Shown in pieces: positions 18,231 to 58,561 of a stretch of DNA of 64,000 nucleotides. The stretch is from Octopus vulgaris (taxonomy: Eukaryota). The first letter of the stretch is position 1. Every line of letters begins with the position of its first letter. The notes beneath the pieces are model-generated. The model did no database searches, was not told the DNA's origin, and saw nothing but the letters and a program-made list of their open reading frames with translations. The stretch spans positions 43,400,001 through 43,464,000 of the forward strand of contig OX597818.1 in NCBI GenBank assembly GCA_951406725.2. Reading direction: 5' to 3'. The position numbers and the translations under genes are program-made.

Positions 18231-20133
18231 CTGAAATTAAAAATAATATTCAAATAATAATATACAGAATTTTCAAGTAGAAATGCCTTTATCTCAGATA
18301 ACAAACATCATTTAGCTCAGGTACCACCTAAATGTAAAACTAAAAGACATAAAACATATACATTTGACAGAAGTAGGATCCATCTATAAAAATTTCCAAC
18401 AGACAGAGATTATATTACTTTCTACATTTGACTTGTTCCAATCATTGGACTGCAGCCATGCTGGAGCACTGCCTTGAAGGTTTTAGTTGAACAAATTAAC
18501 CCCATTACTTATTTTTTAAGCCTTGTACTTAATTTTTCAATCTTTTTTGCTGAATCACCAAGTTACAGAGACATAAACAAACCAGTACCAGTTGCCAAGT
18601 CATGATAGGGCACAAACACACACACACACACATATATCATCATCATCATCATTTAACGTCCACTTTCCATGCTAGCATGGGTTGGACGATTTGACTGAGG
18701 GCTGGCAAACCAGATGGCTGCACCAGGCTCCAATCTTGATCTGGCAGAGTTTCTACAGCTGGATGCCCTTCCTAATGCCAACCACTCCAAGAGAGTGCGT
18801 ATATATATATATATATATATATATCGGGCATGGCTGTGTTGTTAGGGAGCTTGCTTCCTAGCTACATGGTTTCAGGTTCAGTCCCACTGCATGGCACTTT
18901 GGGCAGGTGTCTTCTGCTATAGCCCCGAGTCGACCGAAGCTTTGTGATTGAATTCAGTAGGCGGAAATTACTGCCGTGTGTGTATGTGTGCGTATAGTTG
19001 CTCAGTGCCTCTCCGAAAGAGAGAGAGAGGGAATATATATATATATATACTCACGAAGGTCTTCCCCCAGTTTCTATCTACCAAATCCACTCACAAGGCC
19101 TTGGTTAACCAGGGGCTATAATAGTAGACACTTGTCCAAAGTGTCACACAGTGGGACTGAACCCATGACCACAAGATTGGGAAGCAAGGTTCTTAACCAC
19201 TCGGCCATGCCTGCCCTTTTATATACACACATGATTAATAAAAGGCAACTTAGAAAACAAAAGTGAATTGAGCAAGTTGGTAAATAAAGGTAAATCAGAG
19301 CTTAGTTAGCATTTTATCCAAGATCAAGGTGACAATTAATCATCATTTCTCCCAGAGGGTAATTTCACAAATACTAAGGTAAATGGTTCTTTATAGGTGT
19401 GTAATTTTTGTTTACTATTAGATCGTAAACAAGAGTAAAATTCACTTAAATAGACATAATAGTTATGAAGGAACATTATGTTTATTTTTTGCAGAAACTA
19501 TAAAACACTGGTATTACATTTTTTCTGAGGGCATCAAAAATTTGATTAACCAGTAATGACTCAGTGGGGTAATAATAAATAATAATAACAATAATAATAT
19601 TGCTCTTTCAAAGCCTGCCGTTGTTTGCATCTTACCGTTAATAACTACACAATTTATCAGGAAAAAATTTCTACAACAGCTCAACATGAAAAGTTTTCTC
19701 TCGATAAAACAATGAACTTTTAGGAAAATATTTAGATAACGTTAATGGGATGTAAAGGGAGTAAGAGAGAAACAAATGCAGTTACTTTCATTACAACTAA
19801 TTGCACAGATCCATTTATAATGATTATCGTCATTAATTTCGCAACTGATGACTCTTTAAAACGTAATTTCATTTTAATGAGAATAAAAAACAATAGAATA
19901 AGGTTGCCCCAAACTGCTTATTTGATTCATGCTTTAAATGCTTCAAAGCCATTAAAAATAACATTTACGTCCCTTGCATATTTACTACAAAATGCATTCA
20001 ACAACGAATTTAGCAAAACAATTCTCATCGAAATGATAAACAAAAATGTTCCCAGTTTTCAAATTCCATTATTATTTACAATACTGGGTTTAAAATATGC
20101 CATGTGGTAGAGTAAGCGTTGAGGTATACTTAC

Positions 20134-20650
20134 ACGAATCCTCTTCTCCACACAAACATTCTTTTTCTTGACCAAGAGCATAGCAGTCACAGAATGAATC
20201 ACTTTTAGCCATTCTTTTCGGAGAGACGCGTGATGAGGATGATGAAGATGATGTTACCAGTGACGAGTTGACACTAATCGAGTCACTTTCGGAATAATTT
20301 TGGCTAAAAACGCGACACAATGCACCTCGGACTCTTTCCGAGTCGGATTGTCGCACATCAAATGTCTTGCTATTTGAATCATGGTTAGATGACAATTGAC
20401 AGTCGGGAGGTGTAACGGGAATGTCTTCAAAATCAGTTTCGAAGCTGGAAAGTGATGATTGAAAAATCGCTTTGCTGCAATTTACATCTGGTGTTATTGA
20501 TGTTGTTTGTGATGATGGCAATGCTGTTGATGTTGTTATCGGCGATGTTGTTGACGTTGCTATCGGCTCTATATCTAACCGGCAAGTGTAATCACGATCC
20601 TGTTCGTCTTCATCAGAAATCTTATGCAGGAATTCACTTTCTTCCATCAC
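20134..20650 (-). CDS. SPSB3: SPSB3 coding exon 1 (Ser/Thr-rich N-terminus, ends ...CDCYALGQEKECLCGEEDS)
   Basis: ORF 20090-20650. Donor T|GTAAGT at 20133, phase 1 (517 nt). The CxCGEED motif matches the stretch just before the SPRY domain in vertebrate SPSB3. Confidence 0.88.
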
Positions 20651-21054
20651 ACTCTAAATGCATCAAAACGTTTTATACACACCTCTTTTCATATTAGTCA
20701 CCAGTACCTATATTTTTGTTGCAATTGTATTAGTATATGTAAATAAACAAGAGTACGTTCGTGCTTATCATGCGATGTATTATAAATGAATGTAATGTCT
20801 GCCTTAAGTACACCGTTGTAGAATTACACACATTGGTGTATTTTGTTAAATACTATTAACTTAAAGTGAAATTGTTGTGTAGTTGCACCAGAGGAAACAG
20901 TAATATGTCGCTTGCGTACAACAAAAATTTTAGGTCGCTCCCGTCCCCCAAATAGTTAACTCCCTTACAAAAACATTTAGCTATATTTTTCAATACCGAT
21001 CAAAACAGTTATTATGTTGTGCTGTCTGCCTTAAAATAAAAGGAAATCATAATC

Positions 21055-21110
<56 letters not shown>

Positions 21111-21390
21111 TCTCCTTCCATCTTTCCAGGGTCAACAAAAATAAGGTACCAGTCAAGTACTGAGGTCGATAAAATCGACTCAACCCCGCCCCACAAATTT
21201 CAGTTTTTGCACCTGTGTTAGAAACAATTACAAATATAATAAAATGTTTACTTTTTTGTTGTTGTTGTTGTTGTTACTAGGCAGTGGTATTTCCTTTCTC
21301 CATATGTTTAAAATATGCTGGAAATGGCTATTATTATTTAGACTTTGCTTTCGTGACTTCAGTAACGATATTTTAAAATTTACCTGTTTC

Positions 21391-21566
21391 CCCGAACATT
21401 CTAGATAGATTCAGTGCTGAGTGGCTGATTGAGAATGTTCTTGAATTTTGGAGAATTTTCAAGTGCTTTCTAGAATTTCCTACAACTTTCGAGAACTTTC
21501 TAGAATTTTCAAGAACTTTCCAGTAATTCAAATAAAAGGACCTTAAGCTCAATAATTCAGTTCAGT
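21391..21566 (+). promoter_or_regulatory. Heat-shock promoter: HSE array + TATA-like box + Inr
   Basis: Nine phased 10-bp nnGAAnnTTC units at 21431-21520 (14 of 18 pentamers perfect) and an extra cGAAcaTTCtaGA at about 21393. AATAAAAGG at 21531, TCAGTT at 21557, caaaATGG at 21580. Confidence 0.75.
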
Positions 21567-22229
21567 TTTAGCTACCAAAATGGGTAAGACTATCTGCATT
21601 TATTGGAAATGCTGCCAAGATGTTATAAAGCATCTGGCAGACGCATTTTGCTTTGGCCAATTTATCAAGACAAGAATAAAAAAGTACTCTATGGCGCTAT
21701 CCACTAAAATGTGTAAAGCCAAGAAGGCATATTTTGGTATTTTGGAAGCAAATTCTGGAAATCTCATTTCACCTGCAAGCACAGCAAAAAAATTTTAGAT
21801 GCTAAGACAATTTTCGCCCGCTTTGATCTTTTATTGTTTTAGTCATTGGATTGTAGTCAAGCTGGGGCGTCATCTTGTAGAATTTAGTCCAACAAATTGA
21901 CTCCAGTGCTTATTTTTAAACCTGGAATTACTCTGTCGATCCCTTTTGCCGAACTGCTAAGTTACAGGGGTGTGAACAAACCAACTCTGGTTGTCAAGTG
22001 AAGGAAGGGGGCAAAACAGAAACAATGATGCAAATACGCGTACATACATGCATGCATACATACAAACATATACATACATACATACGTACGTACATACATA
22101 CATACATACATACATCACACACATCATAAGCAGTTGTCCAAAAATGTCATCATGGTATTTTTTACCTCCTCGTCGAAACAAAACTTCGGAAGAAAACCAA
22201 AACTTTCAGATAGGGATCATTGGACTCTT

Positions 22230-23084
22230 ATGCAAATTGTTAGAAAGGATCCCAGCTCCCAAAATTACCACAAAGCTTAGTGATCACCTTGAGAACCCAG
22301 TTTCCACAAAAACTGTTCACCAGGAGCTATACAAAGCCAGACTTCATAGGAGGGCTGGAATCAGAAAACCACTACTTTCAAAAACAAACATTGCAAAACA
22401 TTTAGAGTGGAGTAAAAACCTACAGAATTGGTCCCTAGAGCAGTGGAAGAATGTTATTTTCTTGGACGAGTCATCCTTATTTCCGACCACCAGCCGAGTA
22501 TGCATATGGAGACAGCCAAAATAAGTATTTGACCCAGACTGCCTTCTTCCAACTGTTAAACATGGAGGTGAATCTGTGATGATCTGGAGGGCTATATCTT
22601 GGGAATCCACTGGCCCAATGGTTTCCCTTCATGGCAGAATTAATAGTGAAGACTATTTAAGCATTTTATCTAATCAAATTCATCCTATGTTTGTGGAACT
22701 GTTTCCAGAGGGTAACACAATCTTTTGGGATGACAATGTATCAATTCACACAGCTAAAGTTTTTAATGAATGGCACGAGGAACATTCTCGTTGAACATCT
22801 TATCTGGGCACCACAATCCCCAGATCTCAATATCATTGAACATTTATGATGCATTTTAGAAAAACAAGTAAGGAGTCGATATCCCCCACCATCGTCACTA
22901 CAAGAACTGGAGACTGTTTTAGCCGAAGAATGGACAAAAATTCCTTTGGAAACAATTCAAACTTTGTACAAGTCCATACCACGTAGAATTCAAGCTGTAA
23001 TTACTGCCAAAGGCAGTCCTACCCCATATTAAAATAAATTTGTTTGAAATTTTAAGGTGTTTCCATTATTTTGTCCAACCCCTG
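22230..23084 (+). mobile_element. Tc1-like transposon relic (5' truncated)
   Basis: Transposase fragments RKPLLSKTNIAKHLEW..WKNVIFLDES, TVKHGGESVMIW, IFWDDNVSIHTAK and PQSPDLNIIEHL. Right TIR ...ATTATTTTGTCCAACCCCTG followed by TA. Confidence 0.88.
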
Positions 23085-23351
23085 TAAGTATAATCATCAC
23101 CTTTAGCATTTTTACCATTTCCACAGGCAGATTTTCTATATCCAGATGTCCTTCCTGTCACCAACCCACACCTGTTTCCAACTAAGGTTACATGTCTCCA
23201 TGGCCAGACATGTTTTTGCAGAATATCAGAAATGAATGACACTGCTTGTATAACAGTGACACTCATTTACGACTATCACACAATGGCAAAACAAGGCGAC
23301 ACAAACATACATGTACTTAACTATAAATACTGGCTAAACTTAATTCATATT

Positions 23352-23745
23352 CTTTTACTCGTTTATTCTTTCACTTGTTTCAGTCATTTGACTGCAGCCA
23401 TGCTGGAGCACCACCTTTAGTCAAGCAAATCGACCACAGGGCTTATTCTTTGTAAGCCTAGTACTTATTCTATTGGTCTCTTTTGCCGAACCATTAAGTT
23501 ATGGGGACGTAAACACACCAGCATCAGTTGTCAAGTGGTGTTGTGGAGACACACACACACACACACACATACCGCCCCACACACATATGTATGACAGGCT
23601 TCTTTCAGTTTCCATCTACCAAATCTACTCACAAGGCTTTGGTCAGGCCAAGGTTATAGTAGAAGATGCTTGCCCAAGGTGGCATGCAGTGGGACTGAAC
23701 CCAGAACCATGTGGTTGGGAAGCAAGCTACTTACCACACAGCCAT
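23352..23745 (-). mobile_element. tRNA-headed SINE with internal (TG)n and TAAAAGAG-type tail (family A)
   Basis: Near-full copy. Other copies or fragments at about 770-1145, 2945-3240, 18425-19215, 30084-30310, 35437-35832, 43957-44333, 60546-60876 and 60915-61326. Confidence 0.8.
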
Positions 23746-24436
23746 TCTTTCAAACCTTATGTAAATGAAATTGTGCAAATTCCCCATAAGAAATAAGTAA
23801 ATTTCAAATTATCGTTATCCAGATCACAAAAGCAAAATTTAAAGGAAGTAATAGCAGTTTTCTATAGTTTATCAACACAAGAAATTAACAAATAACACTT
23901 ACTGCCCAGGAACAAAAATGGTGTTGGATTGACAGTATTGTTAGAGCACTGGACAAACTACCTCTTGTTATTTTTAACAGCTCTTTATATTTTGGTTTTC
24001 AATACAGCCAAGATCAACTTCGTGTTTCACCCTTCCGGGATTGATAAAATAGAGTCAAGTATTGGAGTTGATATAATTATCTATATCACTCCCACAAATT
24101 TGAGGTCTTCTACTTAAGACAGGAAATACCATTGAAGTGGATAGACTGGCAGAATTGTAAGAGCTTTGGACAAAAAAAGTCATGCAGTATTTGTTCTGAC
24201 ATTTTCAGTAGAAGATACTTGTTCAAATGTTGCCAAAGTTAACTTTGCCTCTTATCCTTCAGGAGTTGATAAATTAAAGTATCAGTCAAGAACTTGAGTC
24301 AATAAAATCAATTATACCTCTTCTCCCAAATTTCAAGCTTTGTGTTTTATTTTAGAAACAATTATTATTATTGTTGGTGGTGTTCTGGTGGCTTGGTAGA
24401 ATGGTGGGTTAATATAAAACAGTGATTACTTATGTG

Positions 24437-24858
24437 GGACCTTTTTGGTTTGAACGGCAGTTTTTTCTAGCGGTGTCATATGAAACTGTCACCCATAATT
24501 ATGACCCTAGTATCGATCTATTGCATTTCAATCTATTTTAGGGTTAGGGTTAGGGTTAAGGGTGGGGGAAAGGGTATCCTTTTTCTTCACAAATGTAAAT
24601 AAACCCAATCTGTTTCTTAAACGAGGGACATATTCATACGGCACAGAATGTTGTTTACCTCAATAGATGTGAGTCATTGGTTGAAATTGCAGAAATTGAA
24701 GAAAAAAAACAACAAATATCTTACAAATTATAGAATTTTCTCAATAAAGCCAAGAGAAAAATATGTTTTATAAACACATTCTACCAGTATACGAAGTTTA
24801 AAATTTTTTAGTTACCTAGAAATTATGTTAAAAACTGCTGTTCAAACTGAAAAGATCC
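24437..24858. mobile_element. Non-autonomous DNA transposon (GG..CC TIRs, 8-bp TSD) with internal TTAGGG repeats
   Basis: TIRs GGACCTTTTTGGTTTGAACGGCAGTTTT / AAAACTGCTGTTCAAACTGAAAAGATCC. TSD CTTATGTG at 24429-24436 and 24859-24866. Confidence 0.8.
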
Positions 24859-25309
24859 CTTATGTGTCTTTATAATTTGAGGGCAAACCCTGCCAGAGTC
24901 CACCTTCATTCTTATCTTTCTATATTCAGTTAAATAAGTGGCTGTTAAATACTATTGTTAGTCAAAATTAAACCCACCACAAAATATATGACATTGTATG
25001 TGGCTTTCTGCTTTATCAGCCAAATAAACTACAGGAATATTTTTCTTTTACTGGCAAATAAAACTGGTGAAAACCAGTGCATGACTAAAACATTACTTAT
25101 TGCATGAGGGTCACTAGAAATCTACCACATCTGGCATAACACTACTTATCACTTCTAGTAAGTAAATACAATGAGTTGTTGAAATATGGATGTATAATTA
25201 ATTATCTACCTGGAAGTTCCTTGATATTGTTACTTGCTAAGCCTTCTTTGTTGTCATTTTTACATCTACTTTCTCCATGCTAGTTTAAGTAGTTTAAGTA
25301 CAAAAGATA

Positions 25310-26756
25310 TTTGATGAAGCAGATGGAAGAGACAGGGTTTGGAGAAGAAGGGGTGAACATTATGCCAATGGCCATATCGTGGAGGGAGACTCATGGGGAA
25401 GTTAGAACATCATGGTATGGGGCAGGATTGCACTCAACCAGAAACTTGAACCAGCGGTCTTCCAAAACATCGAACAAGGCTGGGGTGTGAAAATTTTTTT
25501 TTCCACGAGAGTTCTGGACCCCATTTATGAACTCATTTGCATACAGCCAATCAGAGCTCAATTATCAAACAAGTTTCCAACTCGTCACGAAAATATTCTG
25601 GTTGAGTTCAGTGGAAAATGTGTGTTATAGCAAAATCGAACTGTTCTAAATAGGTTAATAGGGGTGACAAATGTGAAATTTGGTGTATAAAGCGAATGGA
25701 AAGCTGCCCATCGATGATGCCATAAGTGTTGCCAATTTGTGTAATTTACTAGAAAATGTAAATGAGTGCAGTTTCCTAATTTTTTGACTGATTTTGTTCA
25801 TTCCTAATTTAAAATGTTGGTACTGATTGGAAACATTGTAATCAATATGGTGTTGTGTCGTATTGCGCCCTCCTTACATATATCAATGGGTACATGCAGT
25901 ATCACTAATCTCAGTCTGAGCATAGGTACCTAATGTTAGCTCCATACAGAGATGGTGCTCAATTGATCTATGAGGATGATGGGTGGGAGCGGGGTATGTG
26001 GTGATTATGTGAGACCTGCTATGCTGTACTCACAGAGTGGCATACACAATTCTATGCCTGAGCGGTTGTACTCTAGCAGTACAGAGTATGTGGATTTTCA
26101 AGGTGAGCTCTGATTGGCTGTATGCAAATAAGTTCATTAATCTCGTGGGAAAAAAATTTTGCAGCCGGGGCAATGGAGTAACCGCTGCTCACTACATCGA
26201 CCAAGTGTTGAGGCTTCACATTGTGTCATACTTTGCCCATCATCGGAATCACGTGTTCCAACATGACAACGCCCGTGCCCATACTGCCAGGTTGACAACA
26301 GACTTCCTTCAACAACACAACATCCAGACTCTGCCATAGCCTGCCCTAAGTCCAGACTTGAATCCCATAGAGCACTTGTGGGATGAAGTCCAAAGAAGGC
26401 TAAATTGCATCTGTCCAAGGCCAACAACTGTAGCACAACTCACTGTAAGTTTTAACAGAGTATGGGCTGCTATCCCCATGGCCTTCATCAATCATTTGGT
26501 GCATTCAGTATACAGAAGATGCCTGGTGTTAATCAATGCTAACGGTGGTCACACAAAATATTGAGTTCATCTCTTTTGATCCAGGACACTCCGTCATCAT
26601 GTGACACCATGTGATGTCAAAAATGTTTCAGGAAATGGCTTTTTATCATTAGGAAAGAACAGTTTCTTAATTAGCACTCTTCAATCAATGCTATGGCATC
26701 TTTTAATAAACCAATTTCTATTTAGTATGTAAGCAACGTTTCTTTTTGGTTCAGTT
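25310..26756 (+). mobile_element. Tc1-like transposon relic interrupted by a TIR element
   Basis: Encodes DGRDRVWRRRGEHY..IMVWG..| insertion |..YIDQVL..VFQHDNARAHTAR..P*PALSPDLNPIEHLWD. TIR-like ...TTTTTGGTTCAGT end. Confidence 0.85.
25486..26163. mobile_element. Unclassified TIR element nested in Tc1
   Basis: About 60-bp imperfect TIRs. Flanking GC(T/C)GGGG 7-bp duplication. Confidence 0.75.
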
Positions 26757-26792
26757 TACATACATGTATATGATAGGTTTCAACAGAGTTCC

Positions 26793-27025
26793 TTATTTCT
26801 TTATTGCCCACGAGGGGCTAAACATAGAGGGGACAAACAAGGACAGACAATGGGACTGAGTCAATTACAACGACCCCAGTGCGTAACTGGTACTTAATTT
26901 ATGACCCCAAAAGGATGAAAGGCAAAGTCAACTTCAGTGGAATTTGATCTCAGAACGTAACAGCACACGAAATACCACCAAGCATTTCACCCGGCATGCT
27001 AACGTTTCTGCCAGCTCACCACCTT
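26793..27025 (-). mobile_element. Meta-domain-type SINE (monomer, LINE-like tail)
   Basis: tRNA head + Meta-like core + tail. Related copies with this tail at about 31281-31508, 38495-38724 and 43376-43572. Copies with the alternative tail at about 8197-8410, 9892-10064, 41673-41860 and 63357-63565. Confidence 0.75.
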
Positions 27026-29233
27026 AGGCTTCAAAAGAGTTTCTGTCAACCAAATTCACCCATAAGCATTGGTCATCCTAGGGCTATAGTAGAAGACACT
27101 TACCCAAGGTATTGTACAGTGGAAATGGGCCCAAAATTACATGGTTGCAAAGTGAGGCCCTGAATAGGTTTCTCATCAAATGGTTCTAATATGCAGTAGC
27201 ATTATAAATGACAAGTTTTTTTTTTAATAAAGTGTTATTTTATTGAGAGAGAGGTATGATTGCATGACTAAGAAACTTGATTTCTAACCATGTGAGCTTA
27301 GGTTTAGTCCTATGGTGAGACACTTGTACAAGCATCTTCTGTTAGAGCCCCAGGTCTTATGAGTGAATTTGATAGACAGAATCTGAAAGTCCAACCCATG
27401 CCAGCATGGAAAGTTGACATTATGTATGTGCTTGTGTGTGTGTGTGTGTGTGTGTTTTGAGTGGGTGTGTTATGCAAGCACCCACCTTGATTTGACACCA
27501 TGTGACAGTTATAAGTGAATATCACCATCATACAAGTGATGTTTGATTCAAACCAGCAAGAAATATGTCTGGCCATAGGGATAGTTAATAATAGCCATTC
27601 CTCAGGACAATACTGTAGTGTCATTGATATTTACATTTGATCTTCTATTCAAGTGAATACAGAAATAAAGAGATTTGTTTGGAATTCTCAGCTGAAATCA
27701 ATTGTTTGACGAAACCTGGGAAACACTGTGTCCTTTATTAGTTCATTTGTATAACATCCATTTTCCAATGCTAGAATGGGTTGGAGAGGAACTTATTTGA
27801 CACTGGATTTTGTGGTTGGATGCTCTTCTTGTTGCCAACACTTGCTTGTTCCTTCTTCCACAGGTCTTAGAAAGTGCAGCGCATCTGGTATAAAGTCAAC
27901 AAGGAATGAAAACATCATATCACTGTTTAATTCAAGCAATAACATTTTTCCCTGTTTTTCCAATGTTTCATCAGTGTACGTTCAGAACTGCATCATCAAA
28001 TATCTATTCCCCTTTCAAGACTATATGGTGTGAGGGAAATTCGGCTACTATTCATAAACACAAACACTCACATAAACAATACAACAGGCCTGTTGTATAA
28101 GTGTGTGTGTGTTTACTCACAAAACCAAGTGTATTAATTGTTATTGGTATAGATGCCAATTTATAATCTGGATATAGAAATAGTAGTGAGAGATTTCAAA
28201 GCAGTTGTCCATAGTTATCTTCTTTCTCTTTAATTTTCAAAGAAATATTCACATTAGCAGGACAACTGACCTCTGTGATGGTTCCTACTTATTCTTGTCT
28301 GTCCCAAACAACAATGTTTTGATGGAAATGTTCCACCAGCATTCCTTGTGTTGATATTTGTCAATATATTAAATAACAGAGGAATTCTCTATATTTATTC
28401 CAGAACAGTCTTTTTTCTGAATGACATTGTATTGTGCCTAAAGTGTGCCTAAGCCAGCTGGAGGAGATGTTCTCCTAGGGCTACAAGCTACAGTAACACC
28501 CATCCTTAGTGGTTAGCCATATTGAGATGGCAAATATACCTCACATTGTATATTGTTTTTGTGACCAGGTAGTATCTTGAAGACATATTTGGGCAGCTGC
28601 TTATCATGTGTGATGTCTTCCACAGACATAGAACATAATCTACATTTTCAATTGCATTTTGGAGCTCCAAGGGTTTTACTGTTTCTTCTGTTGATTGGGT
28701 ATTTAGTAGCAATCTCCTGTTCTTGGATTACTTCTTTGAAGTGTGATGCAGCGGTCATGAATCCAAGAGAAGCTTTGCTTCATGTCAATGTAACTATCTT
28801 CTTTAAGTCTTCAGGAAGTGTCCTTCAAATGTATTTCAATCAATCAAATCAATACCAGTAGTTGACTGATATTTTAATCTTATCAAAGCTAAGGAGGATG
28901 AAAGATGAAGACGACCTTAGTGAGATTTGAACTCAGAATATAAAGGTCTGGAACCAAATGATGTAAAGTAGTTTGTCTGACACTTTAACAATTCTGTCAA
29001 TCCGCTATTTGAGAATTTCTTTTTTATCAGTTAGTCAGAAGGACAGAGCATATGATCCATTTTAGGGTCTATGAAACTGGTGGGAGGAAGAAAGGAAGGT
29101 ATCCTCAAGTTGGAAACCTCACCTAATTGCTTGCAACAGAATGGGCTCTGCTAAAGGTACCCAAAAGCCAGGTGATGGTAGTAAACAAGGCAATGAAATA
29201 ACAAGTCTATTGTGTAATGTTTGACTTTACCTA

Positions 29234-29621
29234 TCTTTATATATAAAAGTAAGGTTGTGTGTCTGTCTACTCCGATTTAGATTCCTAACTACTCCCACAT
29301 TTTGCAGTGCAGTTATAACCAAAACCGGCTATCTTATAGTCGTGATTCATATCGAGCCCTTCTGGGTATTAGCGCGCGTCTACGATGAGTCTACGATTTT
29401 AAAAATAATTTACCATCATTTTTTCCATTTTAATGCATTTTTTTAAAGGGAAGTAACTCTCTAAAAATGTCTACGATGAGTCAACGATTTTAAAAAAAAT
29501 TTACCATCATATTTTTTTCATTTTTAATGCATTTTTTTGCTATTTTTTGGCTATAACTCTCTAAAAATGCTTTATAGTTATTTCCCTTACAAACCCGAGC
29601 AACGCCAGGCGATACTGCTAG
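29234..29621 (+). mobile_element. Non-autonomous Helitron
   Basis: Inserted between A and T. 5' TC(TTTATATATAAAAG), 3' CTAG preceded by GC-rich CCCGAGCAACGCCAGGC. Internal ~70-bp direct repeat (about 29378 and 29470). Confidence 0.8.
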
Positions 29622-32600
29622 TTTCTGATAAAATACTATTATAAATTATATTTTATAACCAACTGATTAAAGTAGAGTTCACACTTACTTGTTATTTACA
29701 ATTTCATGATTTTGTATACAAGAAGAAATGCATGTGTTGAAATTAAAGACAGATGTCTTTCTGAAGAAACAGTAAAATAAAAAGAAAATATGCAATATTA
29801 GTCAACAGATTCATGCATTATTTATTGGTTGTTAATTGATTATCAGTGCTTATTTTTATGATTTAGATATTCAGGCCAAGCATAGTTCATTAAATGATCT
29901 CATCCTATTTCTGAATTATTAATAATCGCCAAAAATTCCAGACAGCATATACAAGAAATTGTTCAGAAAATTTATTTGAACTCATCAAATAATATTCTAA
30001 TGCTGCTGCAGATCAGGATGAGGATTATACTAAAAATTTCAACTTGCCACTTAGTTATTAATCTGTAAAATTAAAAAATTCACAGGAGTGGCTCTGTGGT
30101 AAGTAGCTTGCCTACCAACCACATGGTTCCGGGTTCAGTCCCACTGCGTGGCACCTTAGGCAAGTGTCTTCTACTATAGCCTCGGGCCGATCAAAGCCTT
30201 GTGAGTGGATTTGGTAGACAGAAACTGAAAGAAGCCCATCATAGATATGTATATATATATATATGTGCGTGTATGTTTGTGTGTCTGTGTTTGTCCCTTA
30301 GCATTGCTTGAGTAAAAGAGTATACCGCACATCCTTAATTTAAGTACGTCCTTAATTTTATTAGATAAATATATTAACAATTAACCTTAAAGCTTTCTTG
30401 AATTGTGTTGTTATTTAGCCCCAGGTTATCCCTGATTGAGTACATCTATAATAAATGGTATTCCAGCCTTGGCCATCCCATCTTCTTTTAACATTTTTCA
30501 CTGTTTTTCCAATATTTCATCAGTGTGCATTCAGAACTGCATCATCAAATATCTGTTCCCCTTTCAAGACTATATGGTGTGAGGGAAATTCGGCTTCTAT
30601 TCCTAGCTAGTCAAATTATTGTGTAAAAGTGCACTCATTTTCTGTCTTATCTTATTATTTTTAATAGGTGGAGACATGGCTGTGATATGCACAAGCGTAA
30701 CTGGGATAGGCTTAAGCTTGACTGTGTAGTTAAAAAGCTTGCTTTCCAACCATCTGGTCTCAGGTTTAGTCCCACTGCATGACACTTTGGACAAGTGTCT
30801 TCTACTATAGCCTAGAGCTGTCTAAAATCTGGTAAGTAGATTTCAATTTCTGTCTACCATATCCACTTACCAGACAAGCTGTCTCAACAAATTCCATCTG
30901 ATATATGCAAGCATGAAAAAGTGATGATGATAATGATGATGACAATGACGAGGAGGAGGATTCCTTGAAGCTTGTTATATATGTTTCCTTGTATGTCTGT
31001 AAGGTCTTAATGTTTTATAATCCATTATATCATCAAAGAGTCAGTGGAAAGGCTCTTCATGTTATTCAAAATGAGTTTACATTAGTGGAATTCTGTTGCT
31101 TACTTCATTCTCACAACAACATTCTATCGCTGTACTAACAGCTAATGAAACACTTGTTAATCATAGAGAAGTAAAGAGACATTCTACATGGCTCCTCTAC
31201 TTTATAAACTGAAAGCTCCACAGGAAAAGAGAAAGAGGTCATGCGTTACATCTCAGGGTTTGGGGAGGCATATATATATATTTCTTTACTACCCACAAGG
31301 GGCTAAACACAGAGGGGACAAACAAGGACAGACAAATGGATTAAGTCGATTACATCGATCCCAGTGCATAACTGGTACTTAATTTATCGACCCTGAAAGG
31401 ATGAAAGGCAAAGTCGACCTCGACGGAATTTGAACTCAGAACATAATGGCAGACGAAATATGGCTACGCATTTCGCCCTGCATGCTAATGTTTCTGCCAA
31501 CACGCCGAGGAGGAATATATATAGGCACCATTCCCGTACCGAGTTGGATTCAGTTCATAATACTTTGCTACCCTACGAATGTATAAACCTTTTGTCAATG
31601 TAAGAAATAAGTCATACATAGCTTTTGTTCTTTATGGGTAAACTATATACCTCCATATGGGTAGCTGTTTACAGTATGATGGATTGAGTAAATTTTGTGT
31701 TGTCTTTTCTAGTGTCAATTACAAATCTTAACATTGCCATTAAATGAATTGCTGGTGTTATACATAAATTTAAGATATAGAATCAAGTGGCTTTTGAACT
31801 TAAAGAACTTAACTAAACCCATACTTGCTTTTGTAACGTTATTATTTCTCGATACAAAGTATAGCACGGGTATCATTCTCACGAACGAGTTCAATTGAAA
31901 TTCGTTGAAACCACTAAGTTTATTTCACATATATATAGGTGGTGGGTGAGGTTTTCTGGCATTCTTGTTCCCCTCTCTTATAAATGGATTGCTATCAGTA
32001 TTATGAAGGACTATCTATTTCAACTAAACAAAACACAACTAATACTAATGACATCGGCTCTGTTAGTCCTAAAAAATCAAAATCATACCAAAACCGACAA
32101 AATCTTTTCTCGGCAATAGCTTTAAAATGTGTAGGAGTCTCTAATGACTTTAATCTCTCAAAAACAAACAAAAATGAACTAAAAATTGAAAGATGACGTA
32201 ATAAGATGATAAGGGGAAATAATTCATGTGACTTATTTTCCTTGCATTTCATAAGCTTCTTATCTACTTCCTTAGTTACTGCTCTGGGACCTAAACAGTT
32301 TTCCTTAGCGACCATCTTTGTATGGTTCGAATTTTTTATCTGGTGACTATTTCACCTCAAGTATTAATCTTGAGAAGTAAGGGACTGTCGAAAAAACACG
32401 ACGTGTTTGGTGGGGTTGATATTTCGGTATTCATGAAGAAGATATTTTTTTGAATTCGTTGGAAATGTTTTCTGAACATAATCATTTATGTTGATAATAT
32501 TGTAGTTTACATTCGAAAATAAACAAAATAAAAGTTAATTTAAATGAGGAAAGGATATAAGTAATATTTAATACCAACATTTTGTTAGCAGTGTAGCAGG

Positions 32601-34407
32601 TACTGCGGAGCTCTTTATGAGTGGGAGGGCTATTAAAATAAAATTAATGTTAGCATGCAGTGAAGACGGTTAAAACATTTTATAACATCTATGGTTTTTA
32701 AATTTGCTAATTTAAATGTTAATTAACATTGAAAGATGAATCGACCTTAGTCACAGGCACGTTTAAGTGAAAAGTAAAGGTCAAAGAAAGCTTTAATGCT
32801 AATTAATGTATCCAGCGATTGATAGTGGGCTTCAGTATTATGTTTTACTGAAAAATTGGGGGCTCCACGGTCTCTATATAGTCGTAGATATACAAAGAAA
32901 AAACGGATGTAGTTGGAAGCGTTCGGTTATGGGTCCCTCGATTAAAGCTCATCAGATGCTAAACAATTAGACTGTTTTGTCTTATATTGTATTAGAAGCA
33001 AATAAAATAAAGAAAGTTACGAGAAAGAAAATCGAAAAAATTTTCACTGAACTGACCATTAACGCGTTGGCGTACGTAATCGGTTTGTATGTCTAAGACC
33101 ATGAAGCTTTTTTTTTTTATTTGTTTAGGAACATAAACTACAACATTACCTTTATGAGATTTGAGCTGAGAATTACCATTACATATAACGGTGACGGCCT
33201 GATAATCGAAAATGGTAGTACATGGGTCTATTTGTCACCGTTGCTGTCGTCATCGCTCTTTGAAGACGATTGCTCGTGAATTTTTTAACTTGTATGACAT
33301 TTTAAACATGAAGTTTTCTTTAGTTTAACTTTAACAGCTATGATCTTTGTAGATCATAGTTAAATTAAGAAATGCCTTTGTGACAGTATTAAAATGGATC
33401 TGGAATGTTGATCGTCGATAATGTTTTCAAAAACAGATAAGAAACCAAGGAAACTAATAATGGTCTGCGCCGGCCAAGATTCCACATTATGAAAATTCCC
33501 CATTTTAAAGTTGTTTCGTTTTTTGTTTTTACATAAATGTTTTCGTGCTAGCACCAATGCAATTTTTTAAAATTCGTATTTGTGATTATATTAACAGGTA
33601 TACATAACAGATGTAAGTTTTTAGGAAAAGGTTAAGCTGTAACCCTTATCAACAGCTGGAAGAGGTTTAAGGTACAATGTTAAACAATTGGAAAACAGGG
33701 AACACCAAAACAGGTCCACTACCTTAAATATTCAGATCAGAGATATGTAGCATTTTATATGTGAGAAGTAGGATGATTTCAGTTGATCAAATTGACCCAA
33801 TATTTGGCAGCATTCTACTTGTAAGTGTCTTGTTTGTCTCAATGATCTGTACTTTATTACTCATAGTGATTGTATTCTTTTTCTGACTTGTGATCAACTA
33901 ACCAATAAGATTTTATACACACACATACACGTATCTGCTATCTGTCACATAGCTTCCATCTACCAAATTTCATTGACAATAAGTTGGTCGACCAAGAGCT
34001 GTGTGAGTGAATTCAGTCACAAAAAGATAAGAGGTATGAGAGGATACAAGTAGTTGATAAATTTTAGATGCAGAACATGCATTTCAATTTATACTTTTAC
34101 ATTCCAATTTAGTTCAAGTGCCATCACCATTGCCTTCACTGTCACCATTGTTGCCACTATCACCATCTTCATTGTCATCATCGGCGTCATTATCATCATC
34201 ATCATCATCGTTTAACATCCATTTTCCATGCTGGCATGGGATGGGTGGTTTGACAGGAGCTGGCAAGCCAGAGAGCTGCACCTGGCTCTTATTGTCTGCT
34301 TGTTTTGGCAATGGTTTCTATAACTGGATGCCCTTCCTAGTGCTGGCTACTACTGTACAGAGTGTAACTGGCTGCCTTTTATGAGGCACCAGCATCAGTG
34401 TTTTATG

Positions 34408-47625: not shown

Positions 47626-47979
47626 ATAAGCAGTAATTAAAATCAGAAGAAAGAACAAGGACCTCTGGTTGCATAATAAATAGAATCAATCGGTTGACCT
47701 TTTATGATCAGAGATATATGTTTGTAGATGTTTGTTCCTAGTAAGTTCAGGTAAGGATGGAGTGGCAGTTGTGATGCCAAGAGCAATAAGTGAAATTGCT
47801 TTAACTGAAAACTGAACTTCAACTACAAACTCATTTCATCAAGTGTCCACCTTAACTCTACGATACTTAGGAATATAATAGTAATCAACTTTATATATAC
47901 AAATAACCTGCTGTAAAGATAAAATAAGTAAACAACTACTTTAAAATGGTATTACAAGAAAGGCCCTCATAGATCTCAC

Positions 47980-48129
47980 CTTCACTAGTAGAACAGTAGG
48001 GACCAAGTAGGTCACGGTATGTCTTTCTGTCTCCACCTTGTCCAGAAAACCATTGAGCACAAGGAAATTCGTAGGTCCATTTCTGCTGAAGGTCATATAT
48101 AGTTATTTGGTCTAAGAACCAAGCATATG
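47980..48129 (-). CDS. PLAT/LH2 domain exon c
   Basis: atttag| ... G|gtgaga. Encodes PYAWFLDQITIYDLQQKWTYEFPCAQWFSGQGGDRKTYRDLLGPYCSTSE (PLAT WFL...YxFPCxxW). Phase 1->1. Confidence 0.92.
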
Positions 48130-48225
48130 CTAAATGTACATATGAAAAAAAATAAGAAAATGTAATACCATTGGTTATTTGGCATGGAAGATTAATAAAT
48201 GTAAAGAATTCTATTTACATTTTAA

Positions 48226-51050: not shown

Positions 51051-51262
51051 CTGAAAAATTAAAATAAAATATATAACTTCAGATATTATTTCATCATCAT
51101 CATCATCATCATCGTTTAACGTCCGTTTTCCATGCTAGCATGGTTTGGACGGTTCAACTGGGGTCTGGGAAGCCAGAAGGCTGTGCCAAGCCCAGTCTGA
51201 TCTGGCAGTGTTTCTACAGCTGGATGCCCTTCCTAACACCAACCACTCTGTGAGTGTAGTGG

Positions 51263-52149
51263 GTGCTTTTTACGTGCCACCTGCACAGGTGCCAGACGAG
51301 GCTGACAACGGCCACAATTGGATGGTGCTTTTTACGTGCCACCTGCACAGGTGCCAGACGAGGCTGGCAACGGCCACAATCGGATGGTGCTTTTTACGTG
51401 CCACCTGCACAGGTGCCAGACGAGGCTGGCAATGGCCACAATCGGATGGTGCTTTTTACGTGCCACCTGCACAGGTGCCAGACGAGGCTGGCAACGGCCA
51501 CAATCGGATGGTGCTTTTTACGTGCCACCTGCACAGGTGCCAGATAAGGCTGGCAACAGCCACAATCGGATGGTGCTTTTTACGTGCCACCTGCACAGGT
51601 GCCAGACGAGGCTGTCAACGGCCACAATCGGATGGTGCTTTTTACGTGCCACCTGCACAGGTGCCAGACGAGGCTGGCAACGGCGACAATCGGATGGTGC
51701 TTTTTACGTGCCACCTGCACAGGTGCCAGACGAGGCTGGCAACGGCCACAATCGGATGGTGCTTTTTACGTGCCACCTGCACAGGTGCCAGACGAGGCTG
51801 GCAACGGCCACAATCGGATGGTGCTTTTTACGTTCCACCTGCACAGGTGCCAGACGAGGCTGGCAACAGCCACAATCGGATGGTGCTTTTTACGTGCCAC
51901 CTGCACAGGTGCCAGACGAGGCTGGCAACGGCCACAATCGGATGGTGCTTTTTACGTGCCACCTGCACAGGTGCCAGATGAGGCTGGCAACGGCCACAAT
52001 CGGATGGTGCTTTTTACGTGCCACCTGCACAGGTGCCAGACGAGGCTGGCAACAGCCACAATCGGATGGTGCTTTTTACGTGCCACTTGCACAGGTGCCA
52101 GACGAGGCTGGCAACGGCCACAATCGGATGGTGCTTTTTACGTGCCACC
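51263..52149. repeat. 62-bp minisatellite, 14 full units plus a partial
   Basis: Unit GTGCTTTTTACGTGCCACCTGCACAGGTGCCAGACGAGGCTGGCAACGGCCACAATCGGATG. Starts at 51263, 51325 ... 52131. Embedded in an ATG-tailed repeat starting at about 51092. Confidence 0.97.
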
Positions 52150-52558
52150 GGCACTGGTATCACAGCTACAATTGTTGTGAATAAGCTTCTGAAGGAATTC
52201 CAAGCTGACCAAGCATTTTAGAGTGAAATATATATTTGGAGAGATTAAGACAAACATAAAATTATAGAAAAGATTGCTATCCATTATCATTATAAAACAG
52301 CTCAAAACAAAGATTAAATTTCACATAACACAACTAGAATCAATGCACAGGAACTGAAGAAGTAGTTGATCGTTTGTAATTAAGAAATATTAAATGAAAA
52401 AAAACAAAACAAACAAACAAAAGGGAATGCAGTGTAAATAATGGACAGAGTCAAGACTATTGAAAAGGTTGCAAGACACAACGACAATTTTAGGAAAATA
52501 AGAAAGAAGTGGCAATTTTACTGGTGAGTGTGTTAAATTATAAGGACAACAAGGAAGA

Positions 52559-53301
52559 TATTTCTTAATTAACCTATAAAGGTTTTACATAGAGGGGACA
52601 TTACAAGGACAGACAAGGGACATTCAGGGTACAAACTCGCTTCTTACATACAGTGTGAAAAATTGGATGGATTTACATATATTGTGAATGAGGGTTAAAA
52701 ATATAAATATAAATGATGATCGGATGAGTTTTGGGTCCGGATTAGTGAGTTAACCCGCCGGTTGGTTATCCCTTTTTGGTAATCTTTTTCCTTCCTTTTA
52801 TGCCCCGACCGACCGTGCAAGCACAGCCGCGTGCATTCTCATCTTTCTTACCACTGTCCTCCATCTTTTTCCAAACGCTCTTTGCGGCAGCCTCCTCCTC
52901 TCCAGACGGATCTTGCTGGACAGATGGGCAGCGAAGTAATTCACCAGCCCACGTCCGGAGAGGAATTGACCTGTCGCAATCCCTTTTGCTCGCGTCTTCC
53001 ATACCACATCTTTCAGTATGGTTACTACGCAGAGAAAAGCTACCTTCTTTTCTTTGGCGAAAGAGGAAGGTGGTACAATCTTTATCATGGACTCAGACGA
53101 GAGTCGTACTCGCTCCGCATCCGACAACAGCTGTTCGGCAAAGGCCATCAACTCCCTCAACTCGTCACAGTGTACGAAGGCGTGCGTAACCGTTTCACAG
53201 GCATGCCCGCACCTCGGACACGTGGGGGAAATGTCAGTACCATGCCTTGACAACCTTTCTCGAACCGGTAAAGCCGATCGGTAGCACAGCCAGGTCAAAG
53301 A
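52559..53301 (-). mobile_element. Tx1/L1-clade LINE 3' fragment (zinc-knuckle C-terminus + 3' UTR)
   Basis: ORF 52798-53349 contains W....ALPVRERL....CPRCG...ETVTHAFVHC...VWKTR (zf-RVT-type CCHC region). Uninterrupted and CpG-rich. Confidence 0.85.
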
Positions 53302-53553
53302 CACAACAGAATATGCTTCAACACACGAACTCACATAAAGAACCTGCAAGCCAAATCCAAAAACAAAATATTAAATGAGTTTTTGGAATTTAAATATGTC
53401 AACATGCTAACAGAAAAGCTTTCATTTTTCTGACTTAAAACAATGAATTTAGTATTTTAATTACTTTCAGAGCCAAAATCAATAACTAAATGAAAATAGA
53501 TCAATATGATTAATTAAGTTTTTCATACTAACTTGAAAAAAAAAGATACTTAC

Positions 53554-53736
53554 CTTTCCTTTTTGAAATTTTATCTTGTTTGTCTTCGATTCAAGCAAAT
53601 CTATAGATTTGGTTCTTCCAAGATCTCCATATAACACTATTTTAACTTGAGCTCTGGTGCTAGCACCTAATTCATTACCAGTTTTTACCACAATTTTATA
53701 ATTAGTGACTGAGCCAGATGTTATTTCATTGTTAAC
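53554..53736 (-). CDS. PLAT/LH2 domain exon a
   Basis: aaag| ... AAG|gtaagt. Encodes VNNEITSGSVTNYKIVVKTGNELGASTRAQVKIVLYGDLGRTKSIDLLESKTNKIKFQKGK, matching the PLAT consensus YxVxVxTG...GAxTxAxVxIxLYG. Confidence 0.92.
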
Positions 53737-54013
53737 CTTTGATAGAAACAAAAACAATAAAACATAACTGTCACACATAATAAATGGATATGGCTTTTTT
53801 CATGCATTATAAATGAGCAGCTAAAGTGCTGTGCGGATCATAATTATTATGATTAGTAGGATATCTGTGAAAACAAAGCAGCTATAAACTGACTTCAAAA
53901 GAACTGCATCTCAACAAGCACAACAGAAGCAAGCACAGAGCTTATGTATCCTTCTTTTCATTTATATCACACATTTGAAAGGTGGTGAGCTGGTAGAAGC
54001 ATTAGCATGCCAG

Positions 54014-58134: not shown

Positions 58135-58561
<427 letters not shown>

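Follow-up and report, generated by a model that had tools for sequence, protein, structure and literature searches.

An unusually long array of phased heat-shock elements (HSEs), lying back-to-back with the minus-strand gene SPSB3 in a 64-kb window of Octopus vulgaris DNA (the whole stretch analysed), is read here as the orphaned promoter of a decayed hsp70 gene, probably still bound by HSF and perhaps boosting SPSB3 under heat, a reading to which sequence comparison lends a probability of roughly 0.5. It builds on the array itself and its position (Table 1), on close relatives having an array of the same length, and on the disrupted reading frame that follows, and from these we infer a history and a function. 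The locus is neither a new kind of system nor a new micropeptide system; the unusually long HSE array is real.

Table 1. Coordinates of the array, its flanks and neighbouring features within the window.
Feature	Position	Strand	Remarks
SPSB3 first exon	20134–20915	−	Start codon 20647; 100% identity to O. vulgaris SPSB3, plus contigs
Low-depth unspliced contigs	X11 21143–21681 (across array); X1 21186–21424	.	Two RNA-like runs
Weaker upstream HSE	21393–21407	.	Two perfect and one imperfect pentamers; from sequence
Phased HSE array	21432–21521	.	18 alternating nGAAn/nTTCn pentamers, 14 perfect; doubles as a 10-bp tandem repeat
TATA-like box AATAAAAGG	21531–21538	+	First-base mismatch; 10 bp past the array
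Two overlapping initiator-like TCAGTT motifs	21557–21567	+	Motifs at 21557 and 21562; putative starts 21559 or 21564
Stretch after ATG	21580–21834	+	Non-coding; likely what extensive deletion has left of an Hsp70 5′ end (11 colinear blocks on profile columns 40–185)
SINE-type repeat, (TACA)n and 5′-truncated Tc1/mariner remnant	21827–23086	.	Close the unique stretch on the right
Decayed Tc1/mariner transposase remnants (two)	22140–23086; 26013–26561	+	Pfam HTH_Tnp_Tc3_2, DDE_3
Multi-exon PLAT/LH2-domain gene	41312–63276	−	Upstream of SPSB3; PLAT at 53482–53799 and 47939–48214
zf-RVT, 3′ piece of a LINE-type reverse transcriptase	52801–53370	−	Within the PLAT gene; Pfam E=1.5e-10

The nine consecutive 10-bp units of the original prediction (21431–21520) were reproduced letter for letter, as was its count of 14 perfect pentamers out of 18; in the register beginning at 21432 the pentamers match the consensus in the order 333233133223333333, the final seven being perfect. 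No other 18-pentamer stretch in the window scores above four, and the maxima of 100 windows simulated under an order-3 Markov model were four (58 windows), five (39) and six (3), far below the array. With an HSE defined as at least three contiguous inverted nGAAn pentamers, the array holds six perfect triplets, the only ones in the 64 kb, of which just three are non-overlapping; the predicted room for about six trimers is therefore an upper bound that needs imperfect sites. The further HSE predicted upstream is present, weaker and one base out of phase relative to the array.

Mismatches to the consensus occur at 5 of 54 positions in core columns and 11 of 36 in spacer columns, the core being the less variable (Fisher p=0.013), while spacer columns 2 and 7 are identical in eight of the nine units and TRF reports the block as a period-10 repeat. 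The spacer identity indicates tandem duplication besides core conservation, so that selection and repeat expansion are not alternatives for this array: the original argument for selection over satellite expansion stands in its observation of conserved cores, but not in its exclusion of duplication. Tandem duplication is the probable origin of the array, with selection perhaps acting on its cores as well. A scan against Rfam gave no match reaching the gathering score; a resemblance to mir-237 at the array (23 bits against a cut-off of 80) was rejected as a palindrome artefact.

Contigs from four sequencing runs, two RNA-like (X1, X11) and two DNA-like (X9, X10), were aligned to 20000–21900, with X10 and X11 carrying two other organism codes and representing close relatives. 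All four runs consist of contigs, which come without strand, start, level or treatment; no evidential weight attaches to the gaps in X1 and X11 (20000–20127, 20960–21087 and 21728–21791) or to the thin cover of X9 over 21536–21727, with ~76% of that run read. Single X10 contigs cover 21288–21547, including the array (depth 7.4), and the downstream stretch at 21526–21900 (depth 4.8), alongside 6.1 over the SPSB3 exon contig and thousands over the adjoining repeats; depth is not a copy count, and these values hint that the array is approximately single-copy in X10. The prediction had named membership of a high-copy transposon as the finding that would overturn it; single X10 contigs at about exon depth and the lack of a second copy in the window hint that the block is no such element. 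In X9 and X10, short matches from other loci lift the depth over some of the array. One X9 contig at depth 56, with a joint from 21520 to 21494, carries extra HSE-like units in a similar 10-bp style, which would belong either to a longer allele or to a paralogous array at another genomic site.

Array length is equal in X10 and X11. Within the array, both relatives differ at the spacer base 21436, and X10 also at 21465, in a pentamer that is imperfect anyway. All 49 intact core bases are kept in both, against 17 events over 312 flanking bases, a contrast suggestive of core conservation that falls short of significance (P=0.064). The low-depth X11 contig bridges the array, TATA-like box, initiator and splice donor without a joint, and, spanning the array from 21143, is not accounted for by a single start at 21559; this contig and its X1 counterpart could reflect carried-over DNA, or else RNA of a divergent or enhancer type.

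To the left of the array, the minus-strand exon at 20134–20647 is 100% identical to O. vulgaris SPSB3 (P0002) over 171 residues and 73% identical to that of Argonauta, with the exons for the SPRY domain and SOCS box at ~11.9 and ~6.9 kb in the window. RNA-like records of 3.1–3.3 kb match unspliced from the exon edge at 20134 to 20884 (X1) or 20915 (X11), and the DNA-like runs continue to 21042, beyond the ends of these contigs, which hints weakly at an SPSB3 start close to 20.9 kb, with the gene facing away from the array. The mRNA-like contigs end ~520–550 bp left of the array, placing six HSEs within ~1 kb of a start site, this contig-based 5′ end being itself a weak hint. A 5′-UTR exon with a minus-strand donor at 21385 spliced to 20655 was considered and rejected, the contigs running unspliced through both positions. 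The original description of the array as having no recognisable gene is accurate insofar as there is no intact gene of the array's own, but it overlooked the minus-strand SPSB3 5′ end ~0.5 kb away, as well as the resemblance to Hsp70 in the bases that follow the ATG. Further upstream of SPSB3, the PLAT gene is fused with SPSB3 in a cuttlefish gene model (P0005), probably an annotation merge; the fusion suggests that the PLAT–SPSB3 gene order is conserved in cuttlefish. A piece of LINE-type reverse transcriptase lies within the PLAT gene (Table 1).

The spacing of HSEs, 10 bp, TATA box, initiator and ATG is that of inducible hsp promoters, and at the octopus locus the TATA-like box, initiator and ATG adjoin the array on the side pointing away from SPSB3. 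The distance from the start of the TATA-like box to the initiator A is 28 nt (21559) or 33 nt (21564), followed by an ATG at 21580 and a donor GT at 21584, leaving 16–21 nt between putative start and ATG. A complete core promoter had been predicted, and the TATA-like box, TCAGTT, ATG and GT do stand where they were placed, but the first base of the box departs from the consensus, and the combination is common: TATA boxes with at most one mismatch, paired with an initiator at this spacing, occur 32 times in the window, two of these being the present site, making such a promoter weak evidence alone. Taken with the array, the sequence supports the predicted candidate for a strong HSF1-type site with plus-strand promoter geometry. 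Immediately left of the array, GGCTGATTGAG at 21423–21433 is one base off the reverse CCAAT (NF-Y) box consensus, and could be another decayed promoter element.

Parts of the stretch after the ATG look Hsp70-like by eye, and its bases were compared with Hsp70 by a codon alignment permitting frameshifts and long deletions, using a eukaryotic profile (120 loci fetched by a short pattern, 47 with usable coding sequence) and a second, independent profile of 101 animal Hsp70 proteins under four penalty sets. On the sense strand, 11 colinear blocks correspond to the Hsp70 N-terminus directly after the ATG, for example AFIGNAAK against RLIGDAAK, TKMCKAKKAYFG against TKMKETAEAYLG, and DAKTI against DAGTI. 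The 47-locus profile scored 52.5 against a null of 32.5±6.7, with higher values in 1 of 200 shuffles and in 4 of the 474 segments taken from the window; the score with the 101-protein profile was reached by 3, 4, 4 and 8 of 300 shuffles and by 3, 2, 4 and 8 of 255 segments across the penalty sets. These protein-level results (p ~0.01–0.03) are to be read as inflated, Hsp70 having been chosen after several families had been eyed. Hsp70 columns 191–380 and 381–570, SPSB3, the PLAT protein and DnaJ gave z of −1.0 to 1.2, and the antisense strand scored 27, none of them a signal. The z of 1.2 obtained with Escherichia coli DnaK weighs against the relic.

In the DNA comparison, once the searched motif had been masked, 4 of 150 segments attained the mean z over Hsp70 loci; a DNA profile limited to codon positions 1 and 2 was not significant (62 and 40 of 500), nor were eight further settings without the biased third positions (44–171 of 600). 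Leaving the motif unmasked raised z to as much as 4.2 (13 and 7 of 500), but such scores carry some circularity and do not count as evidence. Searches of the stretch against Hsp70 by nhmmer, tblastn and Pfam returned nothing significant (best nhmmer E=0.31, at 21600–21620), and no outstanding further trace of columns 160 onward was present in 21830–33000 (best 53 on a mean of 38). A live hsp70 was not found in the 64-kb window, and no cephalopod-named Hsp70 appeared among the 240 matches listed, which were mostly arthropod-named or unnamed, with cluster look-ups yielding krill and fish. The Hsp70-like blocks fall in three frames, and the frame opened by the ATG stops after 72 codons (32 in the relatives), as in a disabled gene. 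Where the stretch lies, its strand and the part of the protein that it matches make an Hsp70 relic plausible.

A different reading of the same bases, as a heat-inducible plus-strand gene that either opens with a very short first exon (ATGG|GT) or encodes a micropeptide of 72 residues, draws on the promoter geometry and on a donor at 21584 that ranks in the top ~1% of GT sites in the window (36 of 3494, by a rough matrix), and is considered very unlikely. The 72-codon frame (21580–21798) is not conserved: in both X10 and X11 a 1-nt deletion at 21627 brings a stop after 32 codons, and the A at −3 of the start context (21577) is T, which speaks against the predicted micropeptide. Frames of at least 72 codons beginning with ATG number 63 in the window; this one matches no Pfam family at the curated cut-off and no PDB entry below E=0.16, and the exact protein is absent from ~15 billion sequences. 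A DnaJ-like reading of the frame was tried and gave no signal. As to the spliced form, the X11 contig crosses the donor unspliced, but a 25-nt first exon would be too short to align, and the donor may still be used. A further 138 frames of at least 50 codons were compared with Pfam, and none on the plus strand reached the cut-off; the one notable plus-strand match is a piece of DDE transposase. Eight downstream acceptors would give 30–57 codons after ATGG, none distinctive. A protein-coding plus-strand gene is not supported; a non-coding plus-strand RNA is possible.

Two further explanations were weighed. In one, somewhat unlikely, the array would be nothing more than an upstream heat-shock enhancer belonging to SPSB3, formed on the spot through tandem duplication of a 10-bp unit, with the plus-strand promoter and Hsp70 likeness arising by chance and the low-level RNA being upstream antisense from the SPSB3 promoter. 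The closeness of the SPSB3 contig ends, the commonness of the TATA–initiator pair, the near-invariant spacer columns, the lack of significance in the de-biased Hsp70 DNA comparisons, and the extent of the X11 contig, as for divergent RNA, all fit such an enhancer; it leaves to coincidence a colinear protein-level match to Hsp70 that has the location and strand to be expected and concerns the anticipated end of the protein, and a TATA-like box, initiator and ATG that abut the array opposite to SPSB3, and the titles and abstract openings of the matching papers listed contain no link between SPSB3 and heat induction. In the other, distinctly unlikely, the array would be a minisatellite of 10-bp units, carried by a transposon or evolving neutrally, whose HSEs are accidental and do little or nothing. 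Surroundings full of SINE and Tc1 debris, the TRF repeat, the short matches that raise array depth in X9 and X10, the X9 contig with extra units and a conservation in relatives that does not reach significance are compatible with this, but the cores vary less than the spacers, the block sits on single X10 contigs at about single-copy depth, self-BLAST found no second copy within the window, and no long terminal inverted repeat was found beside the block. Enrichment of HSEs in Helitrons was restricted to Caenorhabditis among the genomes examined, by the available text of that study (PMC6927752), and no Pfam match to Helitron Rep/helicase remnants occurred among 158 frames scanned.

Under the preferred reading, as an orphaned hsp70 promoter, the locus would once have held a copy of hsp70 whose HSE promoter had been amplified in tandem; the coding part of that copy would have lost about half its bases and been cut off by SINE and Tc1 insertion. 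The repeats on the right flank were recognised by self-BLAST, TRF and Pfam (HTH_Tnp_Tc3_2, E=6.9e-8), their right end being read by eye. The HSE block would have survived by whole-unit slippage, which preserves phase, perhaps with selection in addition. Under heat or proteotoxic stress, HSF trimers would bind three to six sites of the array cooperatively, and the occupied array would fire a short non-coding plus-strand RNA rightwards; as a proximal enhancer ~0.5 kb upstream, it could also raise SPSB3 transcription leftwards.

Human HSPA7 is near full length and keeps a heat-responsive promoter, whereas the octopus stretch would be a 250-bp, barely detectable relic. HSPA7 is usually regarded as an Hsp70 pseudogene, and HSF1 trimers are described as binding HSEs after stress (PMC13149161, available text). 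As in the promoters of inducible hsp70 genes, the phased pentamers of the array are followed at once by a TATA-like box, an initiator and an ATG; the array differs in having no intact hsp gene, a continuous block of 18 pentamers, only 16–21 nt from start to ATG, and the TATA mismatch. By analogy, the octopus array would work most like the alpha-gamma element of Drosophila melanogaster (87C), described as a detached hsp70 promoter fragment driving heat-induced non-coding RNA into transposon-derived sequence (PMC1794594, available text), and also like HSE-dense Epromoters that co-induce their neighbours. The octopus array too is trailed by SINE and Tc1 debris; alpha-gamma, however, lies between live Hsp70 genes and its induction has been shown, whereas the octopus array neighbours SPSB3 and its induction is a prediction. 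Heat-shock Epromoters, in the available account (PMC12864986), share with it an HSE-dense promoter near a non-chaperone gene and possible co-induction, but they are promoters of live genes and owe their definition to co-induction and enhancer assays in human cells; enhancer activity of the octopus array is a prediction. The Caenorhabditis Helitron clusters likewise place tandem overlapping HSEs near unrelated genes, and are reported as multi-copy with >10 and up to 86 HSEs (PMC6927752, available text), against six perfect overlapping HSEs in an array that looks single-copy.

If HSF still binds, the array would make nearby transcription heat-responsive. That selection has retained the promoter of a dead hsp70 gene as a switch through which heat shock controls SPSB3 is a narrower proposition, and an unlikely one; were it true, a Cullin-5 ubiquitin-ligase adaptor would be wired into the octopus heat-shock response, and co-option of a pseudogene promoter would be a route to a lineage-specific HSF target. 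A functional array would make SPSB3 a candidate heat-regulated gene in a temperature-sensitive, fished and farmed cephalopod, and would offer a clean case of regulatory DNA outliving its gene, best known so far from the Drosophila alpha-gamma element; a non-functional one would be an ordinary decayed promoter or minisatellite.

Literature searches, thin on subscription journals, found neither a paper tying octopus to SPSB3 nor a description of this array locus. SPSB3, SOCS box and SPRY are absent from six supplementary files of an Octopus maya heat-stress study (PMC6341066), and octopus is not mentioned in the available text of PMC8423806. Octopus bimaculoides is reported to be without Hsp70 expansion (PMC8910992, available text), and O. 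vulgaris HSP70 is stated, with citation of other work, to be raised by thermal stress (PMC11851374, available text).

Elsewhere in the window, a CpG-undepleted unique stretch at 31800–33600 (observed/expected ~1–1.7) resembles the beginning of an unannotated gene, either its promoter or its first exon, and contains a minus-strand frame of 116 codons (32001–32351) with no Pfam match at cut-off. Two phage tail loci returned by a viral scan were dismissed as chance matches. A 62-bp tandem repeat at 51262–52158 (14.5 copies, 96% matches) generates long spurious open frames on both strands, a compound triplet repeat, (CAT)10-(ATG)87-(ATC)47, at 58135–58561 has complementary arms, and a near-identical stretch of ~100 bp occurs twice, 2.5 kb apart, at ~27950–28050 and 30500–30600.
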